Notes: generated by a model from the sequence alone, not told the origin. A DNA stretch of 24,000 nucleotides from Halofilum ochraceum (GCF_001614315.2 NZ_LVEG02000004.1:506668-530667), one strand, 5' to 3'; shown: positions 1,028 through 20,197, counted from the first letter of the stretch. Program-made: numbers and translations.

Positions 1028-1345
1028 TCAGGCGCTCAGGCGGCCGTCGAGATTGGCGAGGAAACGCTGCAGTTCGGCTTCATTGGACAGGTCCCCGTAC
1101 AGCACCGCGGGTTCTCCCCCGTCGCGGACGTGGACCAATGCCGGCGTCGCGAAGATCCCGTACTCGGTGATGCCCCCGGTGTCCTCGAGGAGGTCGACAT
1201 GGCGCACGGTGATATGGTCACTGGCGGTTTCTTCCACGGCTTTCGCCAGGTTGGCACGCGCGCGCAGTGAGCGCGGAGAATTACCCGTCACGAACAGAAC
1301 CAGGTCGGCGCTCGCACCGCTATCCCGATCGTTTCCCGGATTCAT
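1028..1345 (-). CDS. kaiB: KaiB (thioredoxin-like clock/timer protein)
   Basis: 105 aa with KaiB hallmarks: LVLFVTGNSPRSLRARANL, YGIFATPALV, LYGDLSNEAEL. Its ATG (1345..1343) overlaps the kaiC stop (1344..1342) as ATGA, implying translational coupling. Confidence 0.9.
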   Translation of the reverse strand: MNPGNDRDSGASADLVLFVTGNSPRSLRARANLAKAVEETASDHITVRHVDLLEDTGGITEYGIFATPALVHVRDGGEPAVLYGDLSNEAELQRFLANLDGRLSA

Positions 1346-3066: not shown

Positions 3067-3124
3067 GGGTCGACTCTCCGGTTTGCGTGTGTCCGGGCGT
3101 TGCCCGGTTCATCGATCGGGCAGC

Positions 3125-6100: not shown

Positions 6101-7144
6101 GGTCGATCCATCTGGGCGGACGATACGGAACTCGAAATCGTGCCGGAGATTTTCGTCCCGCAGGCGAGTGCGCACGTCCAGCAGATGGGCGCGATCGTCA
6201 GGGTGCACGAGCTCCAGAAACGCCTCTGGCGTCGGTTCTCCCAGCGCGGGGTCGAGTCCCAGGATGCGGAAGGTCTCCTCCGACCACTCGAGGCGGTCTT
6301 CGTGGACCATGAGGCGCCAGCTGCCGATCTGCGCAATGCGCTGTGAGTCGATCAGCATCCGCTCGCGATCCTCCAGGGCCCGTTGTTGCGCCGCGATGCG
6401 GTCGTCGGCTGCGTCACGCTCGTCGAGCAGCCGGTTGAAGGCATCGGCGAGGCGCGAGAGTTCGTTGTCGCCACGACCGGCGGCGCGCAGGCCGGACTCC
6501 CCCGCGCGGATCCGGTCGATCGTGCTCGCCAACTCCTGTATGGGCCCACCCATGCGGCGATGGATCAGCCCGAATGCGGCCAGCGACAGTATTCCGAACG
6601 ACAGCGCCGCCGCGGCGAAGCTGCCGGCGATCCACATCGCATCGGTGGCGATACCCTGCTGGCGGTCGCGCAGCAGCTGATACAGGGCCGTGTCGAGTGC
6701 GACGCCGTGGCTGGCGACGCGGTCCATGAGGCTCCGCGCGCGCGGTGAGATATCCAGCGCTCCGGGGGCGTTCGACTCCGCCGGCTCCGTTACCGGTTCC
6801 GTCGCCAACGCGTTGGCATCCGCAAGCGCCTCGATCATCCGATCGATTTCCTGGGCGGCGGCCTGGGCCGCCGGGTATTCGTCGCCCATGGCGCGCAACT
6901 CCCTGCGAAGCGACGCCGCACGGGTGCGGAAAGCGCCATCGCTTTGCTGGTCGGCTCCGAGCAGGAGTTGGCGGTCACTCGCGGCGGACAGATCGTCGAG
7001 GCGTTTTTGCAGCTCGATCAGTTCGACGAGCTCGGCCTGCCTCGCTCGCATATCGTCATACGCGATCAGGCCGATCAGCAGCAGCGCGGCCAGGCCGGTT
7101 ACGCAGCCGGCAATACTGACATTGGATAGGCGCGCCAGTTTCAT
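3125..7144 (-). CDS. Membrane-anchored HAMP / 5xPAS / GGDEF / EAL c-di-GMP synthase-phosphodiesterase
   Basis: Longest ORF is 3125..7153 (1342 aa). I prefer ATG 7144 (MKLARL...) because GGGGGA lies ~8 nt upstream of it, whereas 7153 abuts that G-run. The protein has two TM segments flanking a ~140-aa helical periplasmic region, then a HAMP-like segment and five PAS-like cores (e.g. IGSWRL..EWSEETFRILG, LFCVIDSSHHYVLAN, FGGWWVDL..IHWSD, DAFFTLTPEWRFDYVN, AHIALLDADGTIRDVN). GGDEF motif RVGGDEFVVY is at 4190..4204. EAL motifs are EALLRW (3812..3820), EITE, DDFGTGYSS, KIDK, EGVE and QGF. Confidence 0.9.
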   Translation of the reverse strand: MKLARLSNVSIAGCVTGLAALLLIGLIAYDDMRARQAELVELIELQKRLDDLSAASDRQLLLGADQQSDGAFRTRAASLRRELRAMGDEYPAAQAAAQEIDRMIEALADANALATEPVTEPAESNAPGALDISPRARSLMDRVASHGVALDTALYQLLRDRQQGIATDAMWIAGSFAAAALSFGILSLAAFGLIHRRMGGPIQELASTIDRIRAGESGLRAAGRGDNELSRLADAFNRLLDERDAADDRIAAQQRALEDRERMLIDSQRIAQIGSWRLMVHEDRLEWSEETFRILGLDPALGEPTPEAFLELVHPDDRAHLLDVRTRLRDENLRHDFEFRIVRPDGSTRRVHELAETETDASGNTVALTGTIQDITEWHKVEQRLRQYHHLIESGSDLFCVIDSSHHYVLANDGYAALYGLTRESIEGLHLLDILSREFYDREVVPRLDRCLAGESLSFEGDRTYAHLGTRHFLIRYFPITASEGKGQNIGAVMTDLTDVRHAEETLREQAQLLDMAGRVARFGGWWVDLDSARIHWSDMVAEIHGMPAGYAPTVDEGLAFYAPEYREAMRARFTACAENGIAYDEEMQILDAHGQRVWVRVVAEPVHDLSGRIYCVQGAFQDISANKEADEELERINARLANVLESISDAFFTLTPEWRFDYVNSAAGDLLGRGHAELVGKHVWTEFPAAVGTPIEREYRRAMRERVTVALEEYYEPLEIWFDIRAYPTEEGLAVYFRDVTERRRMEEQLRNREEELRVSRDELAATLETRQMLINALPAHIALLDADGTIRDVNRQWRHFGMENANPDPETGVGQNYLRICDGATGDCADEAAEARTGLADVLNGERETFVLEYPCHAPDRARWFRMMANRLGGELVSGAVVMHVDITERKLAEQELNRLAYQDALTRLPSRNGFVQSLADRLWQLGWQPSAMIVMFDIQRHRDINDSHGYAVGDQLLRTVAERVNEMLGEDALAGRVGGDEFVVYLPEHPDLSAAELRAQIDALFDQPFELDGLQLDVTARFGYTLLGDEPRAHEELLREAELALFESTGSDNNNYWTAYTSAIDHEVRQRVEITQELRQALAGDEFQLHFQPKVRLDTGELIASEALLRWYHPEHGLRSPATFVTIAEQSQLIGPIGDWALNEACRHLREWQDAKLDIVRVAVNVSLVQFMVGDFPETVRSALQRHDVPPQALTLEITESVFERESENLNQQLRTLHDMGVRLSLDDFGTGYSSLLYLQRYPFDEIKIDKGFVRRMLEDPYSRQIVTTVLGVAGALNAEVVAEGVESAAERDALLGMGCRIGQGFYYSMPLESEDFRWLLEQRSHLPISHAGGAG

Positions 7145-7578
7145 GCAGGTCATCCCCCGTTACAGGGGGCACGCTCGACCCTTCGCTGCGCGGTCGTTGT
7201 CTGCCAGCAACGCGGCGGTTGGCGGGAGGTAGAGGACAATGACAGGACTCATGCGCTTCGTTGCTGGCAATGTATCGCGCAGGGCTGGTAGTGTCTATTT
7301 GCCACGCGACCCGTTCAGGGTTTATACCCACTCCCTTTGCGCGAGATCGCGCTGCGTGATCTGAAGAAACCGTAACTATGCCGCTCCGGTGTCGCCTGGT
7401 ATGCTTCAGCGTTCGGCGCTCGCATTCTGACATGCGCAGTGTGGATGCCGGCTTGTACCGGATCCATTGAGCAGAATCCGGGGCGTGTGCACTCGCCGTA
7501 AAGATCCTTCATCACGCTCAATCCGGACCATTACCGCTGGCCGCAGCGGATTCCAGCCTTGCGATGGAGTGTTGAACA

Positions 7579-8577
7579 ATGCTGCCGTGCCCACGCAGCC
7601 GGGGAGTGATTCGTTCGTCCAGCCCTCGGTGCCTTTCGGCCCTCATTGTCGCGACCATTGCCTTGACGCTCGGCGGCTGTGCATGGACGTCGGGCAGTCA
7701 GGCACTGACGGTCGACGAGTACCGCACGCTCGAGGAGCGCTGGGCCGACGAACGCGAGCGGCGGCTGAAGGCCCTGCTGGATGAGCGGATCGAGCCGCTA
7801 CTCGAACACGAGGAACGTCTCGGTACGCTCGAGCGGCGTTCGGAACGGATCCTGGTCGGACTGCGTGAACTCGAGGCGGCCCAGCGGCGCGCGAATCGGG
7901 AGGAGCGGGCCGATGACAGCGGAGGAGACGGCGATGAATCGAACGCGTCCGGGGACGACGGAAACAATGGCGCGGGCAGCGGCGAAGGCGAAGGCAAGGG
8001 CGAAGATGGCCCCGATCTGGAGCGCGATCCGAATGCGCTGACATCCGGTGAACCGCTGATTTTTGGTGCAAAGGAATGCATTGCACTGCCGGAACAGGAG
8101 CTCGTACTGCGCGCGCGGATCGATTCCGGTGCGAATACGGCCTCACTGGCCGCCGTCGATATCGAACAGTTCGAGCGCGACGGCGATCCCTGGGTTCGCT
8201 TTCGGATTCCGCGCGCCGGTTCAGGTGACGAGGCCGCGTCCGGCGCGGAGGATGGCGCCGGTGAGGATGAGGACGTATTCGAAGAAGTCATGGATGCGGT
8301 CGAGTCCGCGGCCGAGGCCGAGAATGAAGAGGAGGTGGGCGTGCGGGTCGAGGCCGAGGTCCAGCGCCGGGTCACCATCATCCAGGCGTCAGGGGAAGAT
8401 GAACGTCCGGTGATACGCCTGCCGACGCGGATCGGTCCGCTCGAACGACGGGTCGAGTACACGCTCGCCGATCGCGGACATTTGACCTACGGAGTCCTGC
8501 TCGGGCGGCGCTTTCTGCAGGATCTCGCCGTGATCGATGTGGCCCGCGAGTACGTTCAGCCTTGTCCGCCGCGCTGA
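7579..8577 (+). CDS. Retropepsin-like aspartic peptidase family protein (DUF785/COG4067, RimB-like), predicted lipoprotein with acidic inserts
   Basis: 332 aa. Signal peptide plus lipobox LTLGG-C (Cys34, 7678..7680). Family core: ECIALPE..LRARIDSGANTASL (D-S-G at 8122..8130), FERDGDPWVRF, LADRGHLTYGVLLGRRFL. Two D/E/G-rich low-complexity inserts lie at ~7909..8028 and ~8212..8334. GGAG lies 10 nt before the ATG. Confidence 0.75.
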   Translation: MLPCPRSRGVIRSSSPRCLSALIVATIALTLGGCAWTSGSQALTVDEYRTLEERWADERERRLKALLDERIEPLLEHEERLGTLERRSERILVGLRELEAAQRRANREERADDSGGDGDESNASGDDGNNGAGSGEGEGKGEDGPDLERDPNALTSGEPLIFGAKECIALPEQELVLRARIDSGANTASLAAVDIEQFERDGDPWVRFRIPRAGSGDEAASGAEDGAGEDEDVFEEVMDAVESAAEAENEEEVGVRVEAEVQRRVTIIQASGEDERPVIRLPTRIGPLERRVEYTLADRGHLTYGVLLGRRFLQDLAVIDVAREYVQPCPPR

Positions 8578-8587
8578 GTGATCGGGC

Positions 8588-10114
8588 ATGCGCGTACCGA
8601 CACTGATCCTGGTCGCACTTGGACTCATCGCGTCGGGTCTGGGTCACAGCGTCTATCGCCATATCGAGCAGGGCGTTCCGCTGCTGCCAGGGGCGAGCGA
8701 GACCTTCTGGGATGTCGAGGCGCGCGTGCGCCTGGAGGCGGAGGAAGGACCGGTCCGCGTACGCCTGGCGGTGCCGGACGATCCGCCGGGTTTTGCCCTG
8801 CGCAGTGAGCACACCGCATCGCCGGGGTACGGGCTGCAGTTCCTCGATGATGGGCAACGGCGTGCCGAATGGACAACGCGGGAGACCGAGGGGCTGCAGG
8901 TCCTCTATTACCGCGCCCAGTTCCGGGCGGTCGAGGGTGAATCCGGCGGGCCGCCGGCACGGAAAGATCCGGAGAAACCCGCCTCCACCGGGACCGTGTC
9001 TTCGTGGCGACCGGCCTTGCAGATTGCCGCCAATGAACTCCTCGCGTCCGCCTACGCCGCCTCGGTCGACGCCTTCAGTCTGGCGGCGGCACTGAGTCGA
9101 CGCCTGCAGGATAACGGCAATCAGAACGCCCGCCTCTTGCTGAGCGAAGCGGATCCGCCGGATGCGCTCGTGCGCCTGTTGGCGCAGGCGGATGTTCCGG
9201 CTCGTGTGGTCCAGGCGCTCGAACTCGAGGATGGTCGGCGTCGGCAGGATCTGCGCTCCATCGTGCGCGTGTTTGGTGACGGCGGCTCGCGGTTGTTTGA
9301 CCCGGTCGCGGGCGGTCGGGCGGATACCAGTCGGCTGCTGCTGTGGGAAGGCAGTGGTGGCCCGGTCCTCGAGGTCGAGGGCGGGCAGGACTCGGACGTC
9401 AGCTTCTCGATTCTCGAGACCCGTCGCCCCGCGGCCGTGGTCGCTCGCGACGAGGGCATCAGCGAAGGTCTGTTCAACCTCTCGATCTACAGCCTGCCCA
9501 TCTCCGAGCAGACCATCTTCAAAAGCATCCTGCTGCTGCCGTTGGGTGCACTGGTCGTCGTGTTCTTCCGGGTGTTCGTCGGTCTGCAGACCTCGGGGAC
9601 CTTTATGCCGGTACTCATCGCGCTGGCGTTCATCAAGATGTCCCTGCTGACCGGTCTCGTGACGTTCCTGCTGGTGATCGGCGGTGGCCTGGTGCTCCGC
9701 CAGGCGCTGGCCCATCTCAATCTGCTGCTCGTCGCGCGCGTGTCCGTGGTCATCGTCTGTGTCATCGGGCTGGTCGCGCTGCTGTCCGTGCTCAGCTTCC
9801 ATCTCGGGTTCGCTGATGCCCTGCAGATGCCCTTTTTCCCGATGATCATCATCGCGTGGACGATCGAGCGGTTGTCGATCCTCTGGGAAGAAGAGGGTGC
9901 GCACGAGGTGTTTATCCAGGGCGGCGGCAGTCTGATTACGGCGATCGCCGCGTATCTGGTGATGCAGCAGCCCTGGGTGCAGTATTGGATGTTCAACTTC
10001 CTTGGCCTGCAGCTCGTGGTGCTCGCCCTGATCATCCTCGTCGGCAGCTATACCGGCTATCGCCTGAGCGAGATGTGGCGGTTCCGCACTTTCTGGAAAC
10101 GCGCTGATGCCTGA
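8588..10114 (+). CDS. Inactive transglutaminase-like domain fused to 7 TM helices (7TM-transglut family membrane protein)
   Basis: 508 aa: an N-terminal TM, a ~290-aa extracytoplasmic domain, then ~7 hydrophobic helices (from LLLPLGALVVVFF to LQLVVLALIILVG) with the GTFMPVLIALAF-type motif I associate with this family. The only Cys in the whole protein is inside a TM helix, so a Cys-His-Asp transglutaminase triad is impossible. Starts 10 nt after the upstream stop and overlaps the downstream gene by 8 nt. Confidence 0.7.
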   Translation: MRVPTLILVALGLIASGLGHSVYRHIEQGVPLLPGASETFWDVEARVRLEAEEGPVRVRLAVPDDPPGFALRSEHTASPGYGLQFLDDGQRRAEWTTRETEGLQVLYYRAQFRAVEGESGGPPARKDPEKPASTGTVSSWRPALQIAANELLASAYAASVDAFSLAAALSRRLQDNGNQNARLLLSEADPPDALVRLLAQADVPARVVQALELEDGRRRQDLRSIVRVFGDGGSRLFDPVAGGRADTSRLLLWEGSGGPVLEVEGGQDSDVSFSILETRRPAAVVARDEGISEGLFNLSIYSLPISEQTIFKSILLLPLGALVVVFFRVFVGLQTSGTFMPVLIALAFIKMSLLTGLVTFLLVIGGGLVLRQALAHLNLLLVARVSVVIVCVIGLVALLSVLSFHLGFADALQMPFFPMIIIAWTIERLSILWEEEGAHEVFIQGGGSLITAIAAYLVMQQPWVQYWMFNFLGLQLVVLALIILVGSYTGYRLSEMWRFRTFWKRADA

Positions 10115-11087
10115 ATGGTCGCGGCGGCTGCGCGAGCAGGGCGTGGTGGGCCTGAACGAGCGCAATCTCGAGTACATCAACCGCGCCAATGGCCGTCGGC
10201 ACTTCCCGCTTGTCGACGACAAGCTGCGGACGAAACGCCTCGCGCAACGTTACGGCGTCGCCGTGCCGGAACTGCTGGGTGTCATCCGTGGCAATCACGA
10301 GGTCCGCCGCCTCGAACAGATCATCCCCGGCGATCGCGGTTTTGCGATCAAACCGGCCCGGGGCAGCGGCGGCAAGGGCATCCTCGTGATCGCGTCCCAC
10401 GGTGATGGCTGGTTCCGGAAAGGGTCAGGGGAATGGCTGCCGCGCCGCCGCGTCGTGCGGTACCTGTCCAACCTGCTCGCCGGTCTGTATACGCTCGGGG
10501 GGACGCCCGATGTGGCCATGGTGGAGGCCCTGGTCGAGATCGAACCGGAATTCGCGGCGTTCAGTCATGCCGGGGTCCCGGACATCCGTATCGTCGTGTA
10601 CCAGGGCTATCCGGTGATGGCCATGATGCGCCTGTCCACGGCGGCTTCCGATGGCAAGGCCAACCTGCATCAGAATGCCATCGGTGTGGGTCTGGATATT
10701 GCCCGTGGCGAGCCGGTGCATGCCGTGCAGAAGAACCGACGCGTAAGCCATCATCCGGACACGGGGCAGCGGCTCGATGAACTGCGGATCAGCGACTGGG
10801 AGGCCATGCTCATACAGGCGGCAAACTGTTTCGAGATGACCGGACTCGGCTTCCTCGGCGCGGATATGGTGCTCGACCGCCGGCACGGGCCCTTACTGCT
10901 CGAGTTGAATGCGCGCCCCGGGCTATCCATCCAGCTGGCGAACGGTATCGGGCTCGCTCCGCGGCTGCAGTGTATTCGTGATCGTGAGGCCGAGCGCGTA
11001 GAGGCGGACCGCCCTGTCTACACAGCGCAGGAACGCGTCGCCTTCGCGCGCGCCCGGTTCACGGGCACGAACGACGTCCTTCCCTGA
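10107..11087 (+). CDS. RimK-related ATP-grasp enzyme (alpha-L-glutamate ligase-like protein, TIGR02291-type)
   Basis: 326 aa. N-terminal GLNERNLEYINRAN..FPLVDDKL.TK signature, ATP-grasp nucleotide loop FAIKPARGSGGKGILVI, and later GADMVLD...LLLELNARPGL. Overlaps the 7TM gene by 8 nt (ATG 10107, upstream stop 10112..10114). Confidence 0.8.
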   Translation: MPEWSRRLREQGVVGLNERNLEYINRANGRRHFPLVDDKLRTKRLAQRYGVAVPELLGVIRGNHEVRRLEQIIPGDRGFAIKPARGSGGKGILVIASHGDGWFRKGSGEWLPRRRVVRYLSNLLAGLYTLGGTPDVAMVEALVEIEPEFAAFSHAGVPDIRIVVYQGYPVMAMMRLSTAASDGKANLHQNAIGVGLDIARGEPVHAVQKNRRVSHHPDTGQRLDELRISDWEAMLIQAANCFEMTGLGFLGADMVLDRRHGPLLLELNARPGLSIQLANGIGLAPRLQCIRDREAERVEADRPVYTAQERVAFARARFTGTNDVLP

Positions 11088-11128: not shown

Positions 11129-12205
11129 TCACATGCTGAACGGCATGGCCATCCGCAGTGAAACGTCCGGTGCATCGTCCGTCAGACCGAAACCGACGTT
11201 CGTGGTCAGTGAGCGGTCGGGTCCGAGGTTGAGCGTAGCGCCGAGATTCAGGACGGACGAGACGGAATCACTCCCCGTAATCTCCTGGCTGGCCTGCCCC
11301 TCCAGTTTCTGCTCCGTCGGCGACGTGAATTTCTGGTCGAGAGAAAATGACAGGCTCAGGTCGCGATTCAGCGCGAATGCCGTTCCCAGCCCGAAGCGGA
11401 AGCTGTCACCGAGGTCGATTTCACCTGGCTGATCACCACTCTGTGCCGAGATATCGTCGAACTCTTCCTTCAGGCGCACGTCGGCGCCGAAACTGGCGAA
11501 CACGATGGCCGGGTCATAGGTCTTGAGTATCGAGGCGCCAAGCGAAACGGTCCAGACGCCGTTCCCCGTCGGCAATTCCTCGGGGAAAGTCAACAACCCA
11601 TCGCCGCGGCTCGCGGTCGGGATTCCGAACGGATCGGTCCCGGTCGGTGCGGTCACGCCCAGGTTGAGGACGACATCCGGTTGGTTCTGTGTTTCGTCAA
11701 GCCAGCGATAGAACAGGCGCATACGCGTGTCCCCGATATCGTCATCGCTGACCGTTTCTTCCAGCGTAAGATCACCTTCCTGATTTGTCGATTCGTAGTT
11801 GGCCTGACGGAAGACGTATGGCACCGCGAGCTGGAACTGGAATCGATCGGTCAGGTCGTAGCGCATCGCCACTTCCGGCTGGATGGTATCGCGCGCGATT
11901 CGATCAACGCTGATATTGCCGAGGAAAATCGCGTCCAGTGCCAGAAAACCGGAAAGCGTCAGTTGATTGCGGTCGGAGTGTGTCCAGGTGATGCTCGGCT
12001 CGATCGTGAGGTCCTCGCCGAACAGCGCGTGCTGCTCACGGTATACGTCGCGGACCGAGGATTCGGGTTCCGCCTCTTCCTCGGTCGGTGCGGCGCTACC
12101 GGAGGCGGAAGGTTCCCCCCCGGAATCGGATTCCTGGGCGGATGCACCGGCAAATGGCAGTGTGAGCGTGAGCGTCAGGATGGATGCTGCGACGGTGCGT
12201 TCCAT
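11129..12205 (-). CDS. fapF: Outer-membrane beta-barrel protein in the FapF position (amyloid secretion pore candidate)
   Basis: 358 aa. Signal peptide ...PFAGASA|QE, an acidic disordered N-terminus, then alternating beta-strand-like segments through to a C-terminal ...MAMPFSM. GGGAGA SD lies 6 nt before the ATG. It is the last gene of the fap-like operon. The symbol is assigned mainly by synteny. Confidence 0.6.
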   Translation of the reverse strand: MERTVAASILTLTLTLPFAGASAQESDSGGEPSASGSAAPTEEEAEPESSVRDVYREQHALFGEDLTIEPSITWTHSDRNQLTLSGFLALDAIFLGNISVDRIARDTIQPEVAMRYDLTDRFQFQLAVPYVFRQANYESTNQEGDLTLEETVSDDDIGDTRMRLFYRWLDETQNQPDVVLNLGVTAPTGTDPFGIPTASRGDGLLTFPEELPTGNGVWTVSLGASILKTYDPAIVFASFGADVRLKEEFDDISAQSGDQPGEIDLGDSFRFGLGTAFALNRDLSLSFSLDQKFTSPTEQKLEGQASQEITGSDSVSSVLNLGATLNLGPDRSLTTNVGFGLTDDAPDVSLRMAMPFSM

Positions 12206-12248
12206 GGATCGTCTCCCGTCCGGTTTGCATGTGTCCGCACGACGTAAA

Positions 12249-12299
12249 GGCGCGCCCGCGCGCGGGCGCGCCCCGTGATATCTCCGGGGGAAACCCCGG
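12249..12299 (-). promoter_or_regulatory. Two consecutive GC-rich hairpins between fapE and fapF (intra-operon attenuator/stabiliser candidate)
   Basis: Read on the minus strand, CCGGGG-tttc-CCCCGG (12284..12299) follows the fapE stop directly. Next comes a perfect 24-nt palindrome GGCGCGCCCGCG/CGCGGGCGCGCC (12249..12272) followed by TTTACG. Confidence 0.5.
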
Positions 12300-13127
12300 T
12301 CAGCGCAGCGTCTCGATCGAGTCGAGCGCCTGGCGTATCGACGCGGTATTGCCTGACAATTCCTCCTGCAGTTCCACGCGGAGCCGGGCGATACTGCTGG
12401 CCCGGTTGAGTTCGCCGCTGAGCTGGATCAGCTGTTTGACGCCCTGGCCGGAAACGACGCGTTGCGAGACGCGGCCGCTGCCGGGGATATCGAGCGCCAG
12501 GTTCATGCCGTGCTCGCCTGCGGATATCTCGACACTCGATCCGTTGGTGCCATGGAGCGCGACATCGGTATTGTTCGCGTCCGAGCCGGAAGCGGGGTGG
12601 TCCATGTGCTCGACGACGTCGATCCGCATGTCGTTGACGCCGCTGTTGGCGTCCCCGGCGACCTGAACGCGTTGCACGATCCCGTTCCCGTTGTTGTTGC
12701 CGTTGCCGGGACTGCGATTACCCGACTCCCCGGGAGTGACCGAGCCACCACCGTTTTTAGCCGGATGGGTGCCGTCGGGTTTCGAGTCTGATGGGTTTTT
12801 GATCGCCATGGTCGGGGTGAACTCCACCTTCGGCTCCGACGAACTCATATCGACGCGGAAGTCGACACCGCCACGTACAATTTCACCTGTTTCCGATTGT
12901 ATTTGACTCGCCATTCGCAGGCCAAAACGGACGACCTTGCCGCCCTGGACGAAGCGCCCGCGCTGGTTGGCGAGTTCATGCTCCGGGACCACCTGTGCCG
13001 CGTCCAGGGTTGGTGTTGCCGGCCGTTCCCCCTCGGGGGCAGCGACGGCCGCCTGGACTGAGCATGCCGCGACGATCAGCAGGGCGCCCCTTGCGGTTCC
13101 CCGATTACTGAGTTTTCGCCATTGCAT
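12300..13127 (-). CDS. fapE: Secreted protein in the FapE position, carrying two FapB-like repeat segments
   Basis: The ORF extends to 13169. The internal ATG 13127 has GGAGA 7 nt upstream and starts a signal peptide (MQWRKLSNRGTARGALLIVAACSVQAAVA|AP). It contains a G/N/S/P-rich central region plus GIVQRVQVAGDANSGVNDMRIDVV (12612..12683) and GVKQLIQLSGELNRASSIARLRV (12375..12443). The symbol is assigned by synteny and repeat similarity. Confidence 0.55.
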   Translation of the reverse strand: MQWRKLSNRGTARGALLIVAACSVQAAVAAPEGERPATPTLDAAQVVPEHELANQRGRFVQGGKVVRFGLRMASQIQSETGEIVRGGVDFRVDMSSSEPKVEFTPTMAIKNPSDSKPDGTHPAKNGGGSVTPGESGNRSPGNGNNNGNGIVQRVQVAGDANSGVNDMRIDVVEHMDHPASGSDANNTDVALHGTNGSSVEISAGEHGMNLALDIPGSGRVSQRVVSGQGVKQLIQLSGELNRASSIARLRVELQEELSGNTASIRQALDSIETLR

Positions 13128-13174
13128 CACCGATTCTCCGAAATTCTGTGACAGCGCCCGTGACTCCACCGTTC

Positions 13175-13969
13175 TCAGAAGATCTCCGTGTGCCGGATGC
13201 CGAAGCCGATCGTCTGGGCCTCGGGCACCGGTGCATAGATATCGTGGAGGCGGCGGGCGGAGAGTGTTCGCCTGGGTTTCAGCAGAGCCGTATCCTCATC
13301 GAATCCCGGCCCGATCACCGCGAAAACGATGCCGTTCCAGGCGTCAACAAAATCCTCCAGCGCCATGGTGCGGTTCCCGAGCGCCGGATCACCCACGAAT
13401 ACACGCTCGCCCTCGACCTGGCGAACGACGACGAAATGCCGGTAGCCCTCGATGTCGACGAGGGCGATGGTCGGGATCTTGATGTCGCCCAGGGTATCGG
13501 CCGCTACGCGATAGCCGCGCCCGCGCATGCCAATGCCCTCGACGAAATTCTTGAGATCGAGCAGTGAAAATCCCTGCTTGCGGACCTTCTCGCGGTCCGC
13601 GACTTGGAACAGTCCTTTGAGGATGCGTTTTTCCGTGGCCCCGTTCCGATCGTATGCGTAACGCAGGATGGTCGCGAGTGCCGCGGCCCCGCAGGAGAAG
13701 TCGGTCTGCTGCTCGACCAGCTGCGCATACTTGCGCTCGCGCATCGATTCCACTTCCTTGTCGGCCAGGTCCCCGACGGGGAGATTGCCCCCCATCGGGA
13801 CCCGGGCTGTATGGCCCGTCAGTGGCCAGGACAGCAGGAGCGCCACAAGCCCGCAGCAGGCGAGGATCGTTCCCCACCGCGCGGGCCTGCCGGCGCGTCC
13901 CGCGAAAACAGGCTCGACCCGGCCGCCCGAAGGCGACCGGGCCGAGGTTGGCAGGGTTGCCGTTTTCAT
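13175..13969 (-). CDS. fapD: Periplasmic C39-family cysteine peptidase (FapD)
   Basis: The ORF extends to 14023, but ATG 13969 (GGAAG upstream) precedes a hydrophobic anchor (WGTILACCGLVALLLSW). C39 motifs: QQTDFSCGAAALATIL (catalytic Cys), GYRHFVVVRQV (His), VFVGDPALG (Asp). It holds the fourth position of the operon, as fapD does. Confidence 0.8.
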   Translation of the reverse strand: MKTATLPTSARSPSGGRVEPVFAGRAGRPARWGTILACCGLVALLLSWPLTGHTARVPMGGNLPVGDLADKEVESMRERKYAQLVEQQTDFSCGAAALATILRYAYDRNGATEKRILKGLFQVADREKVRKQGFSLLDLKNFVEGIGMRGRGYRVAADTLGDIKIPTIALVDIEGYRHFVVVRQVEGERVFVGDPALGNRTMALEDFVDAWNGIVFAVIGPGFDEDTALLKPRRTLSARRLHDIYAPVPEAQTIGFGIRHTEIF

Positions 13970-13985
13970 GACGGCTTCCCGAACC

Positions 13986-14005
13986 CGTGGTATCCGGCTA
14001 CCACG
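13986..14005 (-). other. Small stem-loop immediately 3' of the fapC stop
   Basis: CGTGGTA-tccggc-TACCACG (plus-strand reading): 7-bp stem, 6-nt loop, starting 1 nt after the fapC stop codon (14007..14009). No U-tract. Confidence 0.3.
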
Positions 14006-14006
14006 A

Positions 14007-15149
14007 TCACTCTCCGCCTCCATTCCCTTCGGGCCCGACGGACACGACCGACAGGCTGTTGGACTGGAGGTTGTTGGTGCCGGAGGCCACGTTCACGCCG
14101 ATATTGCCGGTGGCGCCGCGCAGGGCATTGCCATCGATCGACGCGTTGTTGGTGGTGCGACGGTCACGCTCGAGATGGGCATAGCCCATCGACACGCTTG
14201 CCGTACCGGACAGTTCGATGTCACCGGCTTCCTCGAACTCGAAGGCGCCATCCTCGTCCAGCGGTGCGTTGTCCTCGTCGCTGGAGTTCGTCTGGGTCTC
14301 AGAGTCGAAGTCGGAATGGCCGAGTGAAGGAGCCGGCGCATTGGGATGCTGGTTCTCATCCCCGAACTCCGGATTGTGATCCCAGTTGTCGGGGTAGACG
14401 TTGTTGCTCTGATCCACGTCGCCCTCGTAGGAGCCTGAGACCCCGCTTTCGGGACCGCCCATGTCGATCTCGGCGGTGAGCTGCTCGAACTCGAGGTCAT
14501 AGCTGGGGCTGTTCACGGTTTCGTTGCCCCCGACCGACTGCCGGGTGCTCACGCCGGCCTCAGCCATGCTGTCGGCACCGGTGGTGGCCGCGAAATTGTT
14601 CTGCTGGCTGTTGCTGTTGCCGGCCGTCACGTTGACCCCGATGTTGCCGGTTGCATCCTGCAGCGCATTGCCGCCGAGGTTCGCCGAGTTCCGGGCACCG
14701 ATATTGGCGGTGCGGTTACCGCCGGTGGTCTGCTTGGAGAACGCCTCGGCGTCCCCATGGCCGAAGACGAAGTCGGCATCGGCCGCGGCCAGCGCCGCCG
14801 CGTTCGACTGGCTGTTGTTGTCGCCGGCCGCCGCGTTGGCGCCGAGGTTGCCGCTGCCTTCGCGCATGGCGTTGTCGTCCACCGAGGCCGAATTGTTGTT
14901 GGCCTTGTTGAGGACTTCATTACCGCCGTTGTCCTGGCGGTTCTCGATCACCGCCATGCCGAGGGCATCGCCGTCGATGTAGCCGCCGACACTGACCTCA
15001 CCTTCATAATCGATTTCCTTTTCGGTATCGGTCTCCTTGTCCATTTCGACGGAACTGTCGCTTTCGTAGCCCTCAGCCATTGCAGCGGGTGCAGCAATCA
15101 CCGCGGCCACCGCGATTGCAAGTGCGGATTTTTCGAAACGATTAGTCAT
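14007..15149 (-). CDS. fapC: Major functional-amyloid subunit FapC (R1-L1-R2-L2-R3 architecture)
   Basis: 380 aa. Signal peptide ...AAPAAMA|EG. Three imperfect repeats share N-[AS]-x-[LIV]-x-x-N-A-[LM]-x-x-x-[ST]-G-N-[IL]-G-[VA]-N-[VA]-x-[AS]-G-x-x-N-x-Q-x-N. GGGGAGA SD precedes the ATG. The protein is N/Q/G/S/D/E-rich and has no Cys. Confidence 0.85.
   Translation of the reverse strand: MTNRFEKSALAIAVAAVIAAPAAMAEGYESDSSVEMDKETDTEKEIDYEGEVSVGGYIDGDALGMAVIENRQDNGGNEVLNKANNNSASVDDNAMREGSGNLGANAAAGDNNSQSNAAALAAADADFVFGHGDAEAFSKQTTGGNRTANIGARNSANLGGNALQDATGNIGVNVTAGNSNSQQNNFAATTGADSMAEAGVSTRQSVGGNETVNSPSYDLEFEQLTAEIDMGGPESGVSGSYEGDVDQSNNVYPDNWDHNPEFGDENQHPNAPAPSLGHSDFDSETQTNSSDEDNAPLDEDGAFEFEEAGDIELSGTASVSMGYAHLERDRRTTNNASIDGNALRGATGNIGVNVASGTNNLQSNSLSVVSVGPEGNGGGE
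14040..14156 (-). repeat. FapC repeat R3 (protein level)
   Basis: aa 332-370: TTNNASIDGNALRGATGNIGVNVASGTNNLQSNSLSVVS. It is separated from R2 by a 141-aa highly acidic linker (14157..14579). Confidence 0.85.
14580..14696 (-). repeat. FapC repeat R2 (protein level)
   Basis: aa 152-190: ARNSANLGGNALQDATGNIGVNVTAGNSNSQQNNFAATT. Confidence 0.85.
14781..14900 (-). repeat. FapC repeat R1 (protein level)
   Basis: aa 84-123: NNNSASVDDNAMREGSGNLGANAAAGDNNSQSNAAALAAA. Confidence 0.8.
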
Positions 15150-15170
15150 CGCTCTGTCTCCCCTTGGTTG

Positions 15171-15809
15171 TCATGGCTCGATCGCACTGTCTACATGCAG
15201 TTCGAACCGGTTGCTCGTGGCGTTGCCACTACCTGCGGCCTGGTTTACCTGAATGACGCCGCTGGCGCCGGCGAAAGCGCTCGGATCGATCTCCGCCGTT
15301 TCCGCCGACTCCTCGCCGCGTCCATCGGGACCCGGCCGAGTCTGTTGTGCCGTACCGACGGCGGCCAGATCGGCCTCACCGAGTTGCTCGCCGTCGATAC
15401 CGACATTGATCGTGAGGGCATTGCCCTGGGCGTTTGCCTGGCCGGCGCTCTGATTGACGGCGATCCAGCCGCTCGCCCCGCTGAATGCGCCCGCCCCGAT
15501 CCGGGCCCGCGCCGCGCCATTGTCCGTGGCCCCTGACGCCGTCCGTTGGCGGATCACGGCGCGCCCGGGGGTCTGCGCCCCGATCGCGATCGCGCCGGCG
15601 TTGGCCTGTACGTTCGCGTTGCCCGCGGTCTGGTTGACCTGGACCGCGCCGTTGACGTCGCCCAGCGCACGATCCTCGATCACGCTCTGCGCCACGCTGC
15701 CCGGGATCGGCTCCTCGCTGGCGGCGGTGCCGGGGACACCGAGCAGCAGGGCCGCGGCGGCCAGCGACCACAGTGCGCGTTCGAGACCGGTGTACGGATT
15801 GCGTTCCAT
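15171..15809 (-). CDS. fapB: Minor amyloid subunit / nucleator FapB (three repeats, short linkers)
   Basis: The ORF extends to 15905, but ATG 15809 lies 1 nt after the fapA stop (15811..15813) and begins a signal peptide (..LWSLAAAALLLGVPGTAAS|EE). Three repeats: IEDRALGDVNGAVQVNQTAGNANVQANAGAIAIG (15579..15680), RIGAGAFSGASGWIAVNQSAGQANAQGNALTINVG (15399..15503), EIDPSAFAGASGVIQVNQAAGSGNATSNRFELHV (15192..15293). Confidence 0.8.
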   Translation of the reverse strand: MERNPYTGLERALWSLAAAALLLGVPGTAASEEPIPGSVAQSVIEDRALGDVNGAVQVNQTAGNANVQANAGAIAIGAQTPGRAVIRQRTASGATDNGAARARIGAGAFSGASGWIAVNQSAGQANAQGNALTINVGIDGEQLGEADLAAVGTAQQTRPGPDGRGEESAETAEIDPSAFAGASGVIQVNQAAGSGNATSNRFELHVDSAIEP

Positions 15810-15810
15810 G

Positions 15811-16179
15811 TCAGTGCCCCAGCTGCAGTGTGTGAGTCTGGCGGTTGCCAGCGCCGTCGCTGTGGTTGCGCCGCCGGGTCGATTGCGTCGGCGAGCCACG
15901 CTCATCCCAGAGCGTCACGCCGGTACGCTGGTTCCCGCCGACGGGGGTGTTGCCCTCGGCGTTGCGGGCGCGGATGCCCGCCAGCGCACGGTCATCCAGC
16001 GTTGCCGCCGGCAGACCCGCATCGCCGGCAGCCACGGTCGCCGCGATCTGCTGCGCATCCGCGGACCATGCGGTCGCCGGTGCGGTCAGGACGAACAGCA
16101 GCGCGAGAAGCGCGGCGGTCAGACCGCGGGTATGGCGTCCTTGCCGTTTCCGCTTTTGCTCGACCAAAAGTGATTGCAT
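15811..16179 (-). CDS. fapA: Small secreted protein in the FapA position (putative amyloid chaperone/regulator)
   Basis: 122 aa. Signal peptide ..LLFVLTAPATAWS|AD. The mature part is low-complexity and likely disordered, and includes LDDRALAGI, which resembles the lead-in of FapB R1 (IEDRALGDV). No obvious SD. It is the first gene after the sigma-54 promoter. The symbol is assigned by synteny. Confidence 0.5.
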   Translation of the reverse strand: MQSLLVEQKRKRQGRHTRGLTAALLALLFVLTAPATAWSADAQQIAATVAAGDAGLPAATLDDRALAGIRARNAEGNTPVGGNQRTGVTLWDERGSPTQSTRRRNHSDGAGNRQTHTLQLGH

Positions 16180-16222
16180 GGCAGTCGTATTGCGCCGGTA
16201 AGCCGTTGTTGCCGACCGTGTC

Positions 16223-16237
16223 GCAAACGCCGTGCCA
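16223..16237 (-). promoter_or_regulatory. Sigma-54 (RpoN) -24/-12 promoter of the fap operon
   Basis: The minus strand reads TGGCAC-GGCGT-TTGC, an exact match to the TGGCAC-N5-TTGC consensus with correct GG/GC spacing. It ends 43 nt upstream of the fapA ATG (16179), and a sigma-54 EBP gene lies immediately upstream. Confidence 0.75.
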
Positions 16238-16242
16238 CTACG

Positions 16243-16312
16243 TAAATCCCTGTTTTATGGGGGTATTATTCAGGCCGGGTGCAGGTATGTGTCACGCTGG
16301 CGAGACAGCGTG
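16243..16312 (-). promoter_or_regulatory. Candidate upstream control region: AT-rich IHF-like site plus 7-bp inverted repeat
   Basis: An AT-rich patch is unusual for this window. On the minus strand AAACAGGGATTTA (16243..16255) matches the IHF consensus WATCARNNNNTTR with one mismatch. CACGCTG-gcgaga-CAGCGTG (16293..16312) is a possible EBP site. Spacing to the -24 element is shorter than for classic UAS. Confidence 0.3.
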
Positions 16313-16401
16313 GGGCGGGGAGGGCGGCAGATGCGGTCGTGGGGCCCGTATGTGGCCGTTTCGTCGATCGTCACACGGATGCGACAGGCGGAGGCGGGCG
16401 T

Positions 16402-17766
16402 TCAGGCTTCGCTGGTGTCGCGCAATCCGTAGCGGTCCATGAGCCGGTACAGGGTCATGCGGGACACGTCGAGTTCCTGGGCGGCCTCCGTCACGCACTG
16501 CCGATTGCGGATCAGCGCGGCATGGATCGCCTCCCGCTCGGCATTTTCACGGACTTCTTCCAGGCTTCTAGCCCGGCGCCAGTGGCCGCGACGCTCCAGA
16601 CCCAGGTCCTCCGGCTGCAGCAACCGGCCCTCGGCCATGACCATGCCGCGCCGCATCCGGTTGATCAGTTCGCGGACATTGCCGGGCCAGTCATAGTGGC
16701 GCATGACGTGCAGCGCATTACGGCTGATCCCGCTCAGCGACGGGGCGCTTTCGGTCTGGAAACGGTCGAAGAAAAACCGGGCCAGCACCTCGATGTCGTC
16801 GGGCCGCTCGCGCAGTGGCGGGATTTCCAGCTGGAGGACATTGAGCCGGTGAAACAGGTCTTCACGGAAGTCCCCCGCCGCGACCGCGTCCGCGATATCC
16901 ACATTGGTGGCCGCGAGGATCCGGACATCAACGGAGACATCGTGCGAACTCCCGACCCGCTGGATGACGCCGGACTGCAGAAAGCGCAGCAGGTTCGCCT
17001 GCAGATTCAACGGGAGATCGCCGATCTCGTCGAGCAGGAGCGTGCCACCGGACGCGGCCTCGATCCTGCCCTCGTGGCGTTCGATCGCGCCGGTAAAGGC
17101 GCCTTTTTCATGGCCGAACAGTTCGGACTGGATCAACTCCGTCGGCAGGGCACCACAATTGACGGCAATGAACGGCCCCTCAGCACGGGGCGAACGCTCG
17201 TGAATGGCGTGGGCGGCCAGTTCCTTGCCGGTACCGGATTCGCCATGAATCAGCACCGGTGCATCGACCCGGGCGGTTTTCCGTATCTGTCCGAACAGTT
17301 TCATCATCGCCGGCGTCGTGCCGACCATCTCGGATTCATCCGTGTCCTGCGGGATGTCTTCGTCCGATTCCTTTGCGGCTGTCTTTTGCCGCAGTGCCGA
17401 GAGTCCAGCAGCGTGGCGCAGAAGCGTGTCGAGCGAGTCGGGGTCGGGGGGAAGCGGGTGATGCGCGAACAGGCAGTCCGCAACGGAACCCGTGAGGAGT
17501 TCCTCGGGATTCCTCCTGCCCGGGACGAGTGCGATCCATTCCCTGCGGCTGTTCCCGAGTATCGCCTCGATTTGACGACTATCCGGCGGCGATGCGCCGT
17601 CGAGGGCGATCACGCCCGGAGCCGTGTCCGACCCCGGCATCGGTGGCAGCGGTTCTCCGATCTCGCGATGAATCACCGGAGACCAGCCGCGTGCCTCCAT
17701 GTTCATGATCAGATCATCTATCGGGCCCGTCCGCGGGCCCCGAACAACCAAGCGCGCCACATCCAT
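16402..17766 (-). CDS. Sigma-54-dependent Fis-family transcriptional activator (bEBP) with an atypical receiver-like N-domain
   Basis: The ORF extends to 17841. ATG 17766 has a strong GGGGAGG SD 6 nt upstream. AAA+ core: VLIHGESGTGKELAA (Walker A), GHEKGAFTGA (GAFTGA sigma-54 contact loop), GGTLLLDEIGDLP (Walker B), RLNVLQLEIPPLRER. C-terminal Fis-type HTH: TEAAQELDVSRMTLYRLM. The N-terminal ~130 aa are REC-like but lack the N-terminal acidic pair. Confidence 0.9.
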   Translation of the reverse strand: MDVARLVVRGPRTGPIDDLIMNMEARGWSPVIHREIGEPLPPMPGSDTAPGVIALDGASPPDSRQIEAILGNSRREWIALVPGRRNPEELLTGSVADCLFAHHPLPPDPDSLDTLLRHAAGLSALRQKTAAKESDEDIPQDTDESEMVGTTPAMMKLFGQIRKTARVDAPVLIHGESGTGKELAAHAIHERSPRAEGPFIAVNCGALPTELIQSELFGHEKGAFTGAIERHEGRIEAASGGTLLLDEIGDLPLNLQANLLRFLQSGVIQRVGSSHDVSVDVRILAATNVDIADAVAAGDFREDLFHRLNVLQLEIPPLRERPDDIEVLARFFFDRFQTESAPSLSGISRNALHVMRHYDWPGNVRELINRMRRGMVMAEGRLLQPEDLGLERRGHWRRARSLEEVRENAEREAIHAALIRNRQCVTEAAQELDVSRMTLYRLMDRYGLRDTSEA

Positions 17767-18038
17767 CGCGTGCCTCCCCTGTGCATGCGCAGGCGCTGAA
17801 ATCGAAGTAGTCGACGGCCCGCGCCCGACCGGCATGGCCATTCGCGGGCTCCGCTCATTGTCATGAAGTCACGGGTGAGCGCCGACTGCTTATTAAAGGT
17901 GTAGTACCTAACCCAAAGTGAGGTCAATATTTCGCACTGCCGACGGTTCGGCTTGGCGGAAATTCACGTGGAGTGGGGATGCAGCCCGGATAGGGGAACC
18001 GGGTCCGAAAACAGGTGGGCTGACTGGAAAGGGGCGGG

Positions 18039-18094: not shown

Positions 18095-19015
18095 TCAGCT
18101 GGACGCGGCCGTCTTCTTGCCGGAACCGCTGAACATCGCCTTGAGGTAGTGGAACAGCGGGCTGCCGCTGGCTCCAGCCTGACCGAAGGTCTGCGTGATC
18201 CGGTCGAGCAGGATCGCAATCAGCACCACGCCAAGACCGCCCTCGAACCCGAGGCCGACGTTCAGGCGCTGAATACCCGTCAGGACCACGTTGCCGAGAC
18301 CGCCCGCACCGATCATCGAGGCGATGACGACCATCGACAGCGACAGCATGATGGTCTGGTTCACGCCCTGCATGATGGTGGGCATCGCCAGAGGCAGCTG
18401 TACCTTGGTCAGGAGCTGGCGCGGCGTGCAGCCGAACGCGAGGCCGGCCTCGATGTTCTCCTCATGCACCTGGCGGATGCCGAGATTCGTGAGGCGCACG
18501 GCCGGCGGCATGGCGAACACCACCGTCGCGATCGTGCCGGGTACCTTCCCGAGGCCGAAGAAGATTGCGGCCGGGATCAGGTACACGAATGGCGGCATGG
18601 TCTGCATGAAGTCCAGCACCGGCCGTACGAGCATCTCGACCTTGTCGTTGCGGGCCATCGCGATGCCGAGCGGCCCGCCGATCAACAGTGCGACGAAACT
18701 GGCACTGAGTACGATCGCCACCGTCGACATGGTCTCCGGCCACAGCGTCATCTCGAAGAACAGGATCATCGCGACGATGCAGAATATTCCGAAGCCCCAG
18801 CCGACGCGCAGAAAGCCGAGAATGATGATCGCTGCCGCCATCACCAATGGATGCACCCAAAGCATGAAGCCTTCGAGGTTGGCCACGACGAAGTCGATGG
18901 CGGCGGAGATGCCGTCGAGCAGGCCGCCGAGATTGTTCTGGATCCAGTCGACGAGGTCTTCGACGTACTGTCCCAGATCGATATTGAGGAATTGATAGTT
19001 CTCTGGATCAGCCAT
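18095..19015 (-). CDS. proW: Glycine betaine/proline-betaine ABC transporter permease ProW
   Basis: 306 aa. ProW-type N-terminal extension (LGQYVEDLVDWIQNNLGGLLDGIS), multiple TM helices, and an EAA-like loop EAGLAFGCTPRQLLTKVQLPLAMPTIM. Starts 6 nt after the proV stop. Confidence 0.9.
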   Translation of the reverse strand: MADPENYQFLNIDLGQYVEDLVDWIQNNLGGLLDGISAAIDFVVANLEGFMLWVHPLVMAAAIIILGFLRVGWGFGIFCIVAMILFFEMTLWPETMSTVAIVLSASFVALLIGGPLGIAMARNDKVEMLVRPVLDFMQTMPPFVYLIPAAIFFGLGKVPGTIATVVFAMPPAVRLTNLGIRQVHEENIEAGLAFGCTPRQLLTKVQLPLAMPTIMQGVNQTIMLSLSMVVIASMIGAGGLGNVVLTGIQRLNVGLGFEGGLGVVLIAILLDRITQTFGQAGASGSPLFHYLKAMFSGSGKKTAASS

Positions 19016-19021
19016 GATGAA

Positions 19022-20197
<1,176 letters not shown>

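Follow-up and report, generated by a model that had tools for sequence, protein, structure and literature searches.

Can a bacterium from a marine solar saltern build a functional amyloid of the Fap type, and how closely does its locus follow the plan known from Pseudomonas? The question is raised by a 24,000-nucleotide stretch of the genome of Halofilum ochraceum (GCF_001614315.2, NZ_LVEG02000004.1:506668-530667; hereafter the window), in which positions 11129-16237 had been read, from the sequence alone, as a complete fapABCDEF operon of a GC-rich halophile. The source is indeed a saltern bacterium, an isolate from a marine solar saltern (as cited in PMC8877833), and with high confidence its locus can be taken as a genuine one for the biogenesis of Fap-type amyloid. 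Counting the activator encoded upstream, it appears to comprise seven genes and not six. The claim of completeness stands by position and gene order, and for the products of fapB to fapF, which could be verified, but not for the first product, which has no detectable homology to FapA.

Central to this reading is the family identity of FapB to FapF. When the products were checked against Fap proteins by hidden Markov model (HMM) and BLAST searches, these five gave significant matches to dedicated NCBIfam Fap models, with E-values from 1e-26 to 1e-95 (FapB 1.5e-26, FapC 3.9e-56, FapD 1.3e-77, FapE 2.9e-29 and FapF 5.8e-95), while the same check of the first product against FapA found nothing detectable. 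The Csg families were unmatched in the Pfam and NCBIfam scans, so that the assignment to the Fap and not the curli type is borne out. The Pfam family PF27129 ("FapBC") is carried by relatives of both FapB and FapC. The fap proteins of H. ochraceum are annotated as "hypothetical", FapC being 100% identical to one such record. Full synteny over the fap genes and both flanks is seen in a 49-kb metagenomic contig (L021), and the Halomonas saccharevitans locus (L023) has the same layout as the window. The features of the locus, all on the minus strand, are as follows.

16402-17841, minus strand: BrfA-like sigma-54 enhancer-binding protein, 479 amino acids
16369-16386, minus strand: candidate upstream activator site 1, dyad TGTCGCATCCGTGTGACG, in a block kept in L021
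16289-16308, minus strand: candidate upstream activator site 2, dyad TGTCTCGCCAGCGTGACA(CA), kept in L021
16223-16237, minus strand: predicted sigma-54 (RpoN) -24/-12 promoter TGGCACggcgtTTGC, exact TGGCAC-N5-TTGC
15811-16179, minus strand: A-position gene, 122 amino acids; "VILWDE"-family protein, small, secreted and for the most part disordered
15171-15809, minus strand: fapB, 212 amino acids; minor subunit or nucleator; longest open reading frame (ORF) to 15905
14007-15149, minus strand: fapC, 380 amino acids; major amyloid subunit, R1-L1-R2-L2-R3 (repeats R, linkers L)
13913-13946, minus strand: GC-rich hairpin just past fapC, from a terminator-like scan and a folding z-score
13175-13969, minus strand: fapD, 264 amino acids; periplasmic C39 cysteine peptidase; alternative start at 14023 (282 amino acids) or GTG at 13846
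12300-13127, minus strand: fapE, 275 amino acids; secreted minor fibril-associated protein; longest ORF to 13169
11129-12205, minus strand: fapF, 358 amino acids; outer-membrane beta-barrel secretion channel with plug helix

The six co-oriented genes that had been foreseen were all found, every one on the minus strand, which the prediction had left unspecified, between 11129 and 16179, and the outer coordinate of the original prediction, 16237, coincides with the first base of the exact sigma-54 promoter. Start codons were refined from Shine-Dalgarno context and the gene calls of a relative. The fapB ATG is coupled to the stop of the A-position gene (TGAcATG), the fapE ATG at 13127 has GGAGA in front of it, and the fapD ATG at 13969 has a conserved Shine-Dalgarno sequence, though this start is still uncertain. 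The A-B-C-D-E-F order, shared by L021 and L023, together with the tight spacing and coupling of the genes, fits a single co-directional operon. Further, the ratio of nonsynonymous to synonymous substitution rates (dN/dS), computed pairwise between the window and L021, lies between 0.10 and 0.41 for the activator and all six genes, indicating purifying selection, so none of them appears to be decaying. Long ORFs on the plus strand over the operon match no family and are the high-GC artefacts to be expected; Rfam gave no match in the window, and PADLOC likewise returned nothing for FapE and the A protein.

The repeat architecture of the two subunits agrees with what had been proposed, namely three repeats in each, with short linkers in FapB and longer ones in FapC. 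The pattern G-x-[IVW]-[GAQ]-[VA]-N-x-[TSA]-[AS]-G occurs exactly three times in both proteins. The repeat cores of FapB lie at residues 54, 114 and 184 (~60-70 amino acids apart), with the short, even linkers of a minor subunit, and the protein is 37% identical to P. guineae FapB (2e-18). FapC has the N-terminal region, three imperfect repeats (residues 86-123, 154-191 and 334-371), two linkers (~30 and ~142 amino acids) and C-terminal region of a major subunit, in agreement with the architecture that Dueholm et al. set out (PMC3792158), and it matches the FapC chains 9nqd and 9u4u of the PDB at ~1e-12. In an AlphaFold2 (AF2) model of FapC built with 73 homologues, the repeats are all-beta with a predicted local distance difference test (pLDDT) score of 80-89, and the N-terminus and linker 2 are disordered. 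A Foldseek comparison of this model with the PDB returned the Pseudomonas FapC fibril 9u4u as the sole significant match (E=7.4e-6, template-modelling score 0.70 on the target), the CsgA fibril 8enq being not significant (E=1.1). FapC has no Cys and hence no CxxC, an absence that is not peculiar to Halofilum, as Halomonas and Shewanella likewise lack it.

The remaining secretion components are equally recognisable. The C39 peptidase motifs that had been pointed out, FSCGAAALATIL, RHFVVV and DPALG, all occur in FapD within its Pfam Peptidase_C39 match (5.5e-21), and the catalytic Cys (FSCGAA) and His (RHFVVV) are intact and aligned with those of other FapD sequences. FapE, encoded between fapD and fapF, matches positions 29-243 of the 247 of its NCBIfam model and is 26% identical to P. 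guineae FapE (BLASTP 1e-14). The outer-membrane barrel expected as the last gene product is FapF, whose residues 41-356 align over the whole barrel of PDB 5O65 (2.7e-76), with the N-terminal plug helix and two PTG motifs; a genome scan recovered FapF relatives at 40-44% identity. The peptidase and the barrel also raise an alternative, in which the locus would make a non-amyloid Fil-type surface fibre or adhesin (FilB C39 peptidase with FilC barrel), or the barrel would be a COG4313/Phenol_MetA_deg uptake channel. FapD does match pilus_FilB (2.1e-29), FapF matches pilus_FilC (4.6e-23) and Pfam Phenol_MetA_deg (2.2e-12), and databases name FapC relatives "adhesin". The Fap models are, however, far ahead of the Fil models (260 against 102.8 bits for FapD, with the C39_FapD model at 1.3e-77, and 318.5 against 82.2 bits for FapF), the Fap-specific FapB, FapC and FapE are all present, and the fold of FapC matches the FapC fibril. 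Moreover, FapF belongs structurally to the COG4313 superfamily (PMC6173800), and the Phenol_MetA_deg match is therefore expected. A Fil-type fibre or an uptake channel is accordingly regarded as highly improbable.

Taking the Pseudomonas model as a guide to this Fap locus, all six products would be exported by Sec, and FapF would form a plugged outer-membrane barrel that passes unfolded FapB, FapC and FapE out of the cell, a secretion for which the C39 peptidase FapD would be required in the periplasm. Once exported, FapC would stack its three uncharged repeats, rich in Asn, Gln, Gly and Ala, into a cross-beta solenoid; FapB would probably act as nucleator, and FapE would be a minor component.

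Several observations weigh against the assignment to Fap. The evidence consists of sequence and models, from the genes of this organism. The signal peptides or anchors announced for all six products were found, each N-terminus showing positive charge, a hydrophobic run and an Ala-rich cleavage-like site, but they were judged by eye and without a predictor. The scores of FapB to FapF lie under the NCBIfam equivalog cutoffs (in bits against cutoff: B 93/190, C 191.1/195, D 260/330, E 102/250 and F 318.5/700). The two NCBIfam FapA models (NF058617 and NF058556) returned nothing for the A protein at E<=10, with the P. guineae FapA control at 1.3e-35. Finally, FapF lacks both the long linker and the periplasmic Q-layer coiled coil, the latter a domain reported as essential for secretion and found in "all FapF homologues" (PMC6173795, PMC6173800), and the equivalent of its residue K401 is Ala in Halofilum and L021, with Arg two residues before (FapF residues 351-353). 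As to the scores, which are far beyond chance by their E-values, they probably reflect cutoffs fitted to a narrow circle of relatives like Pseudomonas and not non-membership, P. guineae FapF itself being under its cutoff (657 against 700 bits); the sub-cutoff values may also explain the "hypothetical protein" annotation.

The FapF channel deserves a closer look. Its NCBIfam match covers only model positions 82-418 of 420, and the mature segment ahead of the plug, QESDSGGEPSASGSAAPTEEEAEPES, is a Pro/Gly-rich stretch of 26 amino acids with zero hydrophobic residues; the absence of the coiled coil was judged from the length and composition of this segment and the start of the NCBIfam match, without a dedicated coiled-coil predictor. 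FapF of L021 has the same type of 26-amino-acid pre-plug segment, and that of Halomonas is similarly short. The corresponding segment in Pseudomonas, Vibrio, Shewanella, Sulfuriflexus, Amphritea and Metallibacterium measures ~80-135 amino acids with heptads, and the long-form N-termini of these six sampled genera consist of heptad-rich, Q-rich segments plus long linkers. A coiled coil encoded separately or fused to FapE was considered and rejected, given a fapE-fapF gap of 94 nt and a FapE C-terminus that aligns to the end of the FapE model. By their sequences, Halofilum and Halomonas thus appear to be natural exceptions to the FapF coiled coil. Among the positions probed by mutagenesis (PMC5557850), E98, E111 and R157 are conserved, and the F102 position is Leu; both PTG motifs (P233-G235 and P259-G261), F325 and F335 are likewise conserved. 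In Pseudomonas FapF, K401 is the salt-bridge partner that pins the plug, and mutagenesis to K401A abolishes secretion (PMC5557850); Halomonas FapF has Arg at this position.

It could be argued that these departures mark a Fap remnant, either decaying or unable to secrete, whose channel, devoid of coiled coil and K401, exports nothing and leaves the cell without extracellular amyloid. Secretion of FapC in Pseudomonas does need the periplasmic domain and K401 (PMC5557850, PMC6173800), and Halofilum FapF has neither. On the contrary, the ORFs are all intact, every gene is under purifying selection, the short FapF is also kept in L021 and in Halomonas (there with Arg at 401), and the promoter and activator are conserved. 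The dN/dS of fapF, at 0.12, is the lowest of the six fap genes and near the 0.08 of a flanking housekeeping-like gene, and such strong purifying selection argues that Halofilum FapF is likely to be functional. A remnant is therefore considered improbable. For the Fap locus proper, this would mean that FapF of Halofilum and Halomonas dispenses with the periplasmic coiled coil, and that it gates its plug and stabilises its trimer in another way.

What, then, is the first gene? FapA is dispensable and often missing in Fap systems, being absent in 6 of 16 genera (PMC3792158), and the lack of FapA hence leaves membership of the Fap family untouched. Beyond the silent FapA models, BLASTP of the A protein against FapA gave no match, and hhalign of the A family against FapA returned a probability of 0.7% with four Pseudomonas FapA and 0.9% with 24 diverse FapA. 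An exhaustive HMMER search over 1.84 billion representative proteins retrieved ~10 A-family relatives of 73-135 amino acids; three large proteins that also matched the profile are WD40 proteins caught via a V-x-LWD signature and were discarded as spurious. Besides the signal peptide, the family is marked by the motif LxDxALAx[IV]RG, by V-[IT]-LWDE, which is invariant, and by a polar tail that closes with GNxQxNxLxL. In relatives, its members stand 1-3 nt upstream of fapB, and the family was found directly before fapB in Halomonas (in the same family at 3.3e-6), three unrelated metagenomic contigs, Sulfuriflexus mobilis (1.8e-22) and Amphritea japonica (8e-14), while the Metallibacterium operon instead has a recognisable FapA (1.3e-9). 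Judging from these genomes, fap operons seem to carry one of two first-gene families, unrelated or unrecognisably diverged. Separately, extra unannotated ORFs that belong to neither A-position family lie between activator and fapB in Sulfuriflexus (131 amino acids, L027 5847-6242) and Metallibacterium (244 amino acids, L029 4640-5374).

The divergence could also run within a single family, with the first gene a true, extremely diverged FapA orthologue and the operon fully orthologous to fapABCDEF. Position, similar size, signal peptide and predicted disorder are all compatible with this, and so is the lone alignable stretch of the two families, 14-16 residues in which LxDxALAxIR faces the conserved FapA motif ELSDsDFAxV; Dueholm et al. 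moreover list FapA for Halomonas elongata, and give a mean FapA identity of only 17% outside Pseudomonadales (PMC3792158). These points have to be set against the silence of both NCBIfam models and the negligible hhalign probabilities, the invariant VILWDE and GNxQxN blocks, for which FapA has no counterpart, and a distribution that is bimodal and not a continuum, Metallibacterium carrying FapA and Sulfuriflexus and Amphritea cleanly the other family. Orthology to FapA is on balance viewed as rather unlikely.

The A protein may nevertheless act as FapA does. Its AF2 model has a pLDDT of 57 and a predicted template-modelling score (pTM) of 0.21, and is disordered save for a short helix over the motif; the gene has a dN/dS of 0.41 against L021. 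FapA has been described as a disordered chaperone in a preprint (bioRxiv 10.1101/2023.03.14.530334), and from the two taken together a FapA-like periplasmic role is proposed for the A protein with moderate confidence. It would most likely hold or pace the subunits in the periplasm, as FapA does in Pseudomonas.

Further hints come from short motifs shared among the operon's products. L-x-D-x-x-[LMF]-A-x-x-R-G-[RK] is common to the A family (residues 58-73 of the A protein) and the mature N-terminus of FapE (residues ~58-76 of the ORF 12300-13169). An initial hhalign probability of 91% between the A family and FapE was partly a signal-peptide effect and was set aside, only a motif-level match remaining: with the signal peptides removed, the two share a 20-column motif at E=3e-4, against 0.34 for the reversed control. 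There is also a weak alignment of the LxDxxLAxxRG motif with ELSDsDFA, which is conserved in true FapA. The tail of the A protein, in turn, weakly resembles the rear half of the FapB repeat over 17 residues (hhalign 41%, E=2.8e-4), and the repeat HMM finds front and rear halves in the right order, at <=13 bits, hardly more than the <=9.6 of shuffles. The idea of the A protein as one degenerate Fap repeat is thus suggestive but not established, and its resemblances to FapE and to FapB are motif-level only. LxDxx[LMF]AxxRG[RK] might be a shared signal that the Fap machinery recognises.

Together, the channel and the first gene allow a tentative proposal, possible but held with some reserve, that Halofilum and Halomonas represent a distinct Fap secretion subtype. 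In this subtype, FapF would export without the coiled coil (and, in Halofilum, also without the K401 plug pin), and the widespread VILWDE protein would be a second, non-orthologous periplasmic partner, combining a FapE-like motif (LxDxxLAxxRG) with half a Fap repeat (GNxQxNxLxL), which could serve as chaperone or fibril cap. If true, coiled-coil gating would not be universal in Fap secretion, and the shared LxDxxLAxxRG motif would become a candidate targeting signal for FapF or FapD.

The original prediction took in neither the missing coiled coil of FapF nor the sigma-54 activator, and the control of the operon can now be outlined. The element TGGCACggcgtTTGC at 16223-16237 (minus strand) is the sole exact -24/-12 match in the window. 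With one mismatch allowed, there are 3 matches against 1.3 expected, not above chance, and the case for the promoter therefore rests on exactness and conserved position. Halofilum relatives, Halomonas, Vibrio, Pseudomonas and some Shewanella have a similar element 50-70 nt ahead of their first fap gene, and in the window transcription is predicted to start near 16211. The adjacent activator has an atypical N-terminal domain, an AAA+ sigma-54 interaction domain with intact GAFTGA and a Fis-type helix-turn-helix (Pfam Sigma54_activat 1.4e-68, AAA_lid_14 and HTH_8), and is 46% identical (6e-118) to the fapF-adjacent activator of P. guineae. A homologous activator flanks fap in every sampled locus for which the flank was available, in varying orientation. 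The precomputed Pfam VpsR N-terminal domain (PF20161) is present on the fap-linked activators of four loci (L026, L027, L028 and L029) but was not reported for that of the window in the Pfam scan. In P. fluorescens PF07, transcription of fap depends on BrfA, the activator encoded next to it, and 5' rapid amplification of cDNA ends (5'-RACE) has mapped the RpoN promoter of fapA (PMC9207406). The same pairing of an RpoN promoter with an adjacent BrfA-type activator gene is found here, and the protein encoded at 16402-17841 likely activates the fap promoter. Between activator gene and promoter lie two TGTC-N10-GAC(A/G) dyads, kept in L021 amid an otherwise diverged intergenic region, the one at 16289-16308 being ~65 nt upstream of the -24 element; both it and the dyad at 16369-16386 are candidate sites for the BrfA-like activator.

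A second level of control may act within the operon. The hairpin at 13913-13946, possibly inside the 5' end of fapD, has a 15-bp GC-rich stem, a UUCG loop and a short U-tract; its folding z-score is -4.3, and L021 retains it, two of its positions having changed without loss of pairing. Halomonas, P. guineae and Shewanella also have a hairpin of this kind after fapC. The element could serve as an attenuator or a 3' stabiliser between fapABC and fapDEF, and may set the fapABC:fapDEF ratio.

The subunits had further been called very acidic, which is true of FapC, and also of FapF, but not of FapB (D+E 9.9%, unremarkable). Mature FapC has 17.5% D+E and a net charge of -49, compared with 8-11% and -19 to -31 in P. 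guineae, Shewanella, Vibrio and Halomonas, the giant Vibrio FapC being left out of the net-charge comparison; the Halomonas value is 9.3%. For FapF, D+E is 16.7%; Halomonas stands at 14.9%, and P. guineae, Shewanella and Vibrio at 11-12%. An acidic isoelectric point of ~4 is common to every FapC, so the Halofilum feature is a quantitative one. The charge of FapC is concentrated in residues 26-80 and linker 2, the repeats holding 1-4 acidic residues each. The hyper-acidic N-terminus and linker 2 would thus amount to ordinary halophile-style surface acidification outside the amyloid core.

The surroundings of the locus offer some side observations. On the plus strand at 7579-11087, convergent with fapF, is a three-gene cluster encoding a Zn-protease/RimB-like protein, an inactive-transglutaminase seven-transmembrane (7TM) protein and an alpha-L-glutamate-ligase-like ATP-grasp protein, in an order kept beside fap in L021; the 7TM protein matches the NCBIfam "osmotic stress tolerance membrane protein RloB" at 5.7e-85, under cutoff. 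At 1342-7153 (minus strand), a 1342-amino-acid HAMP-PAS-GGDEF-EAL protein adjoins a KaiC-like double ATPase; the GGDEF-EAL gene is also adjacent in L021, a possible cyclic di-GMP (c-di-GMP) input near a biofilm-matrix operon. Directly upstream of the activator, at 18095-20197 (minus strand), is a ProV/ProW-type ATP-binding cassette (ABC) transporter (CBS-domain ATPase and permease), probably for compatible-solute uptake, and beyond it a TonB-dependent receptor at 20492-22612; the order is the same in L021.

Overall, these findings extend a known biofilm amyloid system to a saltern organism and correct its "hypothetical protein" annotations. The variant features leave the basic Fap classification unchanged, and the coiled-coil-less FapF, the natural equivalent of K401A and the second first-gene family offer natural experiments for Fap biogenesis. 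FapC, with uncharged core repeats set against a net charge of ~-49 in its linkers, should lend itself to work on how amyloid assembles at high ionic strength.

How does the locus compare with known systems? In the literature covered, searches found nothing on Halofilum with amyloid, on FapC or FapF with halophiles, or on "fap operon" with sigma-54, and only irrelevant gut-microbiota papers on FapC with Halomonas. Fap operons of Beta-, Gamma- and Deltaproteobacteria were catalogued in 2013 by Dueholm et al., whose Table S1 includes Halomonas elongata DSM 2581, with FapA-F, and Desulfohalobium (PMC3792158); a halophile Fap operon is consequently not new in kind. Curli (csgBAC/csgDEFG of Enterobacteria) is alike in logic, with Sec-exported major and nucleator subunits built of repeats, unfolded secretion through an outer-membrane channel of their own and extracellular polymerisation, but there is no relationship in sequence or fold: the locus has neither CsgA/CsgB repeats nor a CsgG channel, FapF is a 12-stranded plugged barrel and CsgG a nonamer, and curli has no C39 peptidase. 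Nor are FilB and FilC the best matches of its peptidase and barrel.

With the Pseudomonas systems (P. sp. UK4, P. aeruginosa PAO1 and P. fluorescens), the locus shares the FapB-C-D-E-F order, the three-repeat FapB and FapC with a long FapC linker 2, the Cys and His of the C39 peptidase FapD, the plug helix, both PTG motifs, E98, E111 and R157 of FapF, and a sigma-54 promoter ahead of the first gene with an adjacent BrfA-type activator. It differs in a first gene of the VILWDE family in place of FapA, in a FapF with Ala at K401 and with neither the trimeric Q-layer coiled coil nor the ~40-amino-acid linker, in a FapC without the C-terminal CxxC and with about twice the acidic content, and in an activator that is upstream and co-directional, where that of Pseudomonas is downstream and convergent. 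The closest relative for every component is the Halomonas system (FapF 4e-97, FapD 1e-81, activator 5e-139), which has the same succession of activator, small A gene of the same family and B-C-D-E-F, and a short FapF without the coiled coil; it is set apart by a FapC that is not hyper-acidic, by Arg at K401 and by a different genomic neighbourhood. As far as these genomes indicate, the non-FapA first gene, the coiled-coil-less FapF and the upstream co-directional activator are variants common, wholly or partly, to Halomonas, and the hyper-acidic FapC appears to be the feature specific to Halofilum.

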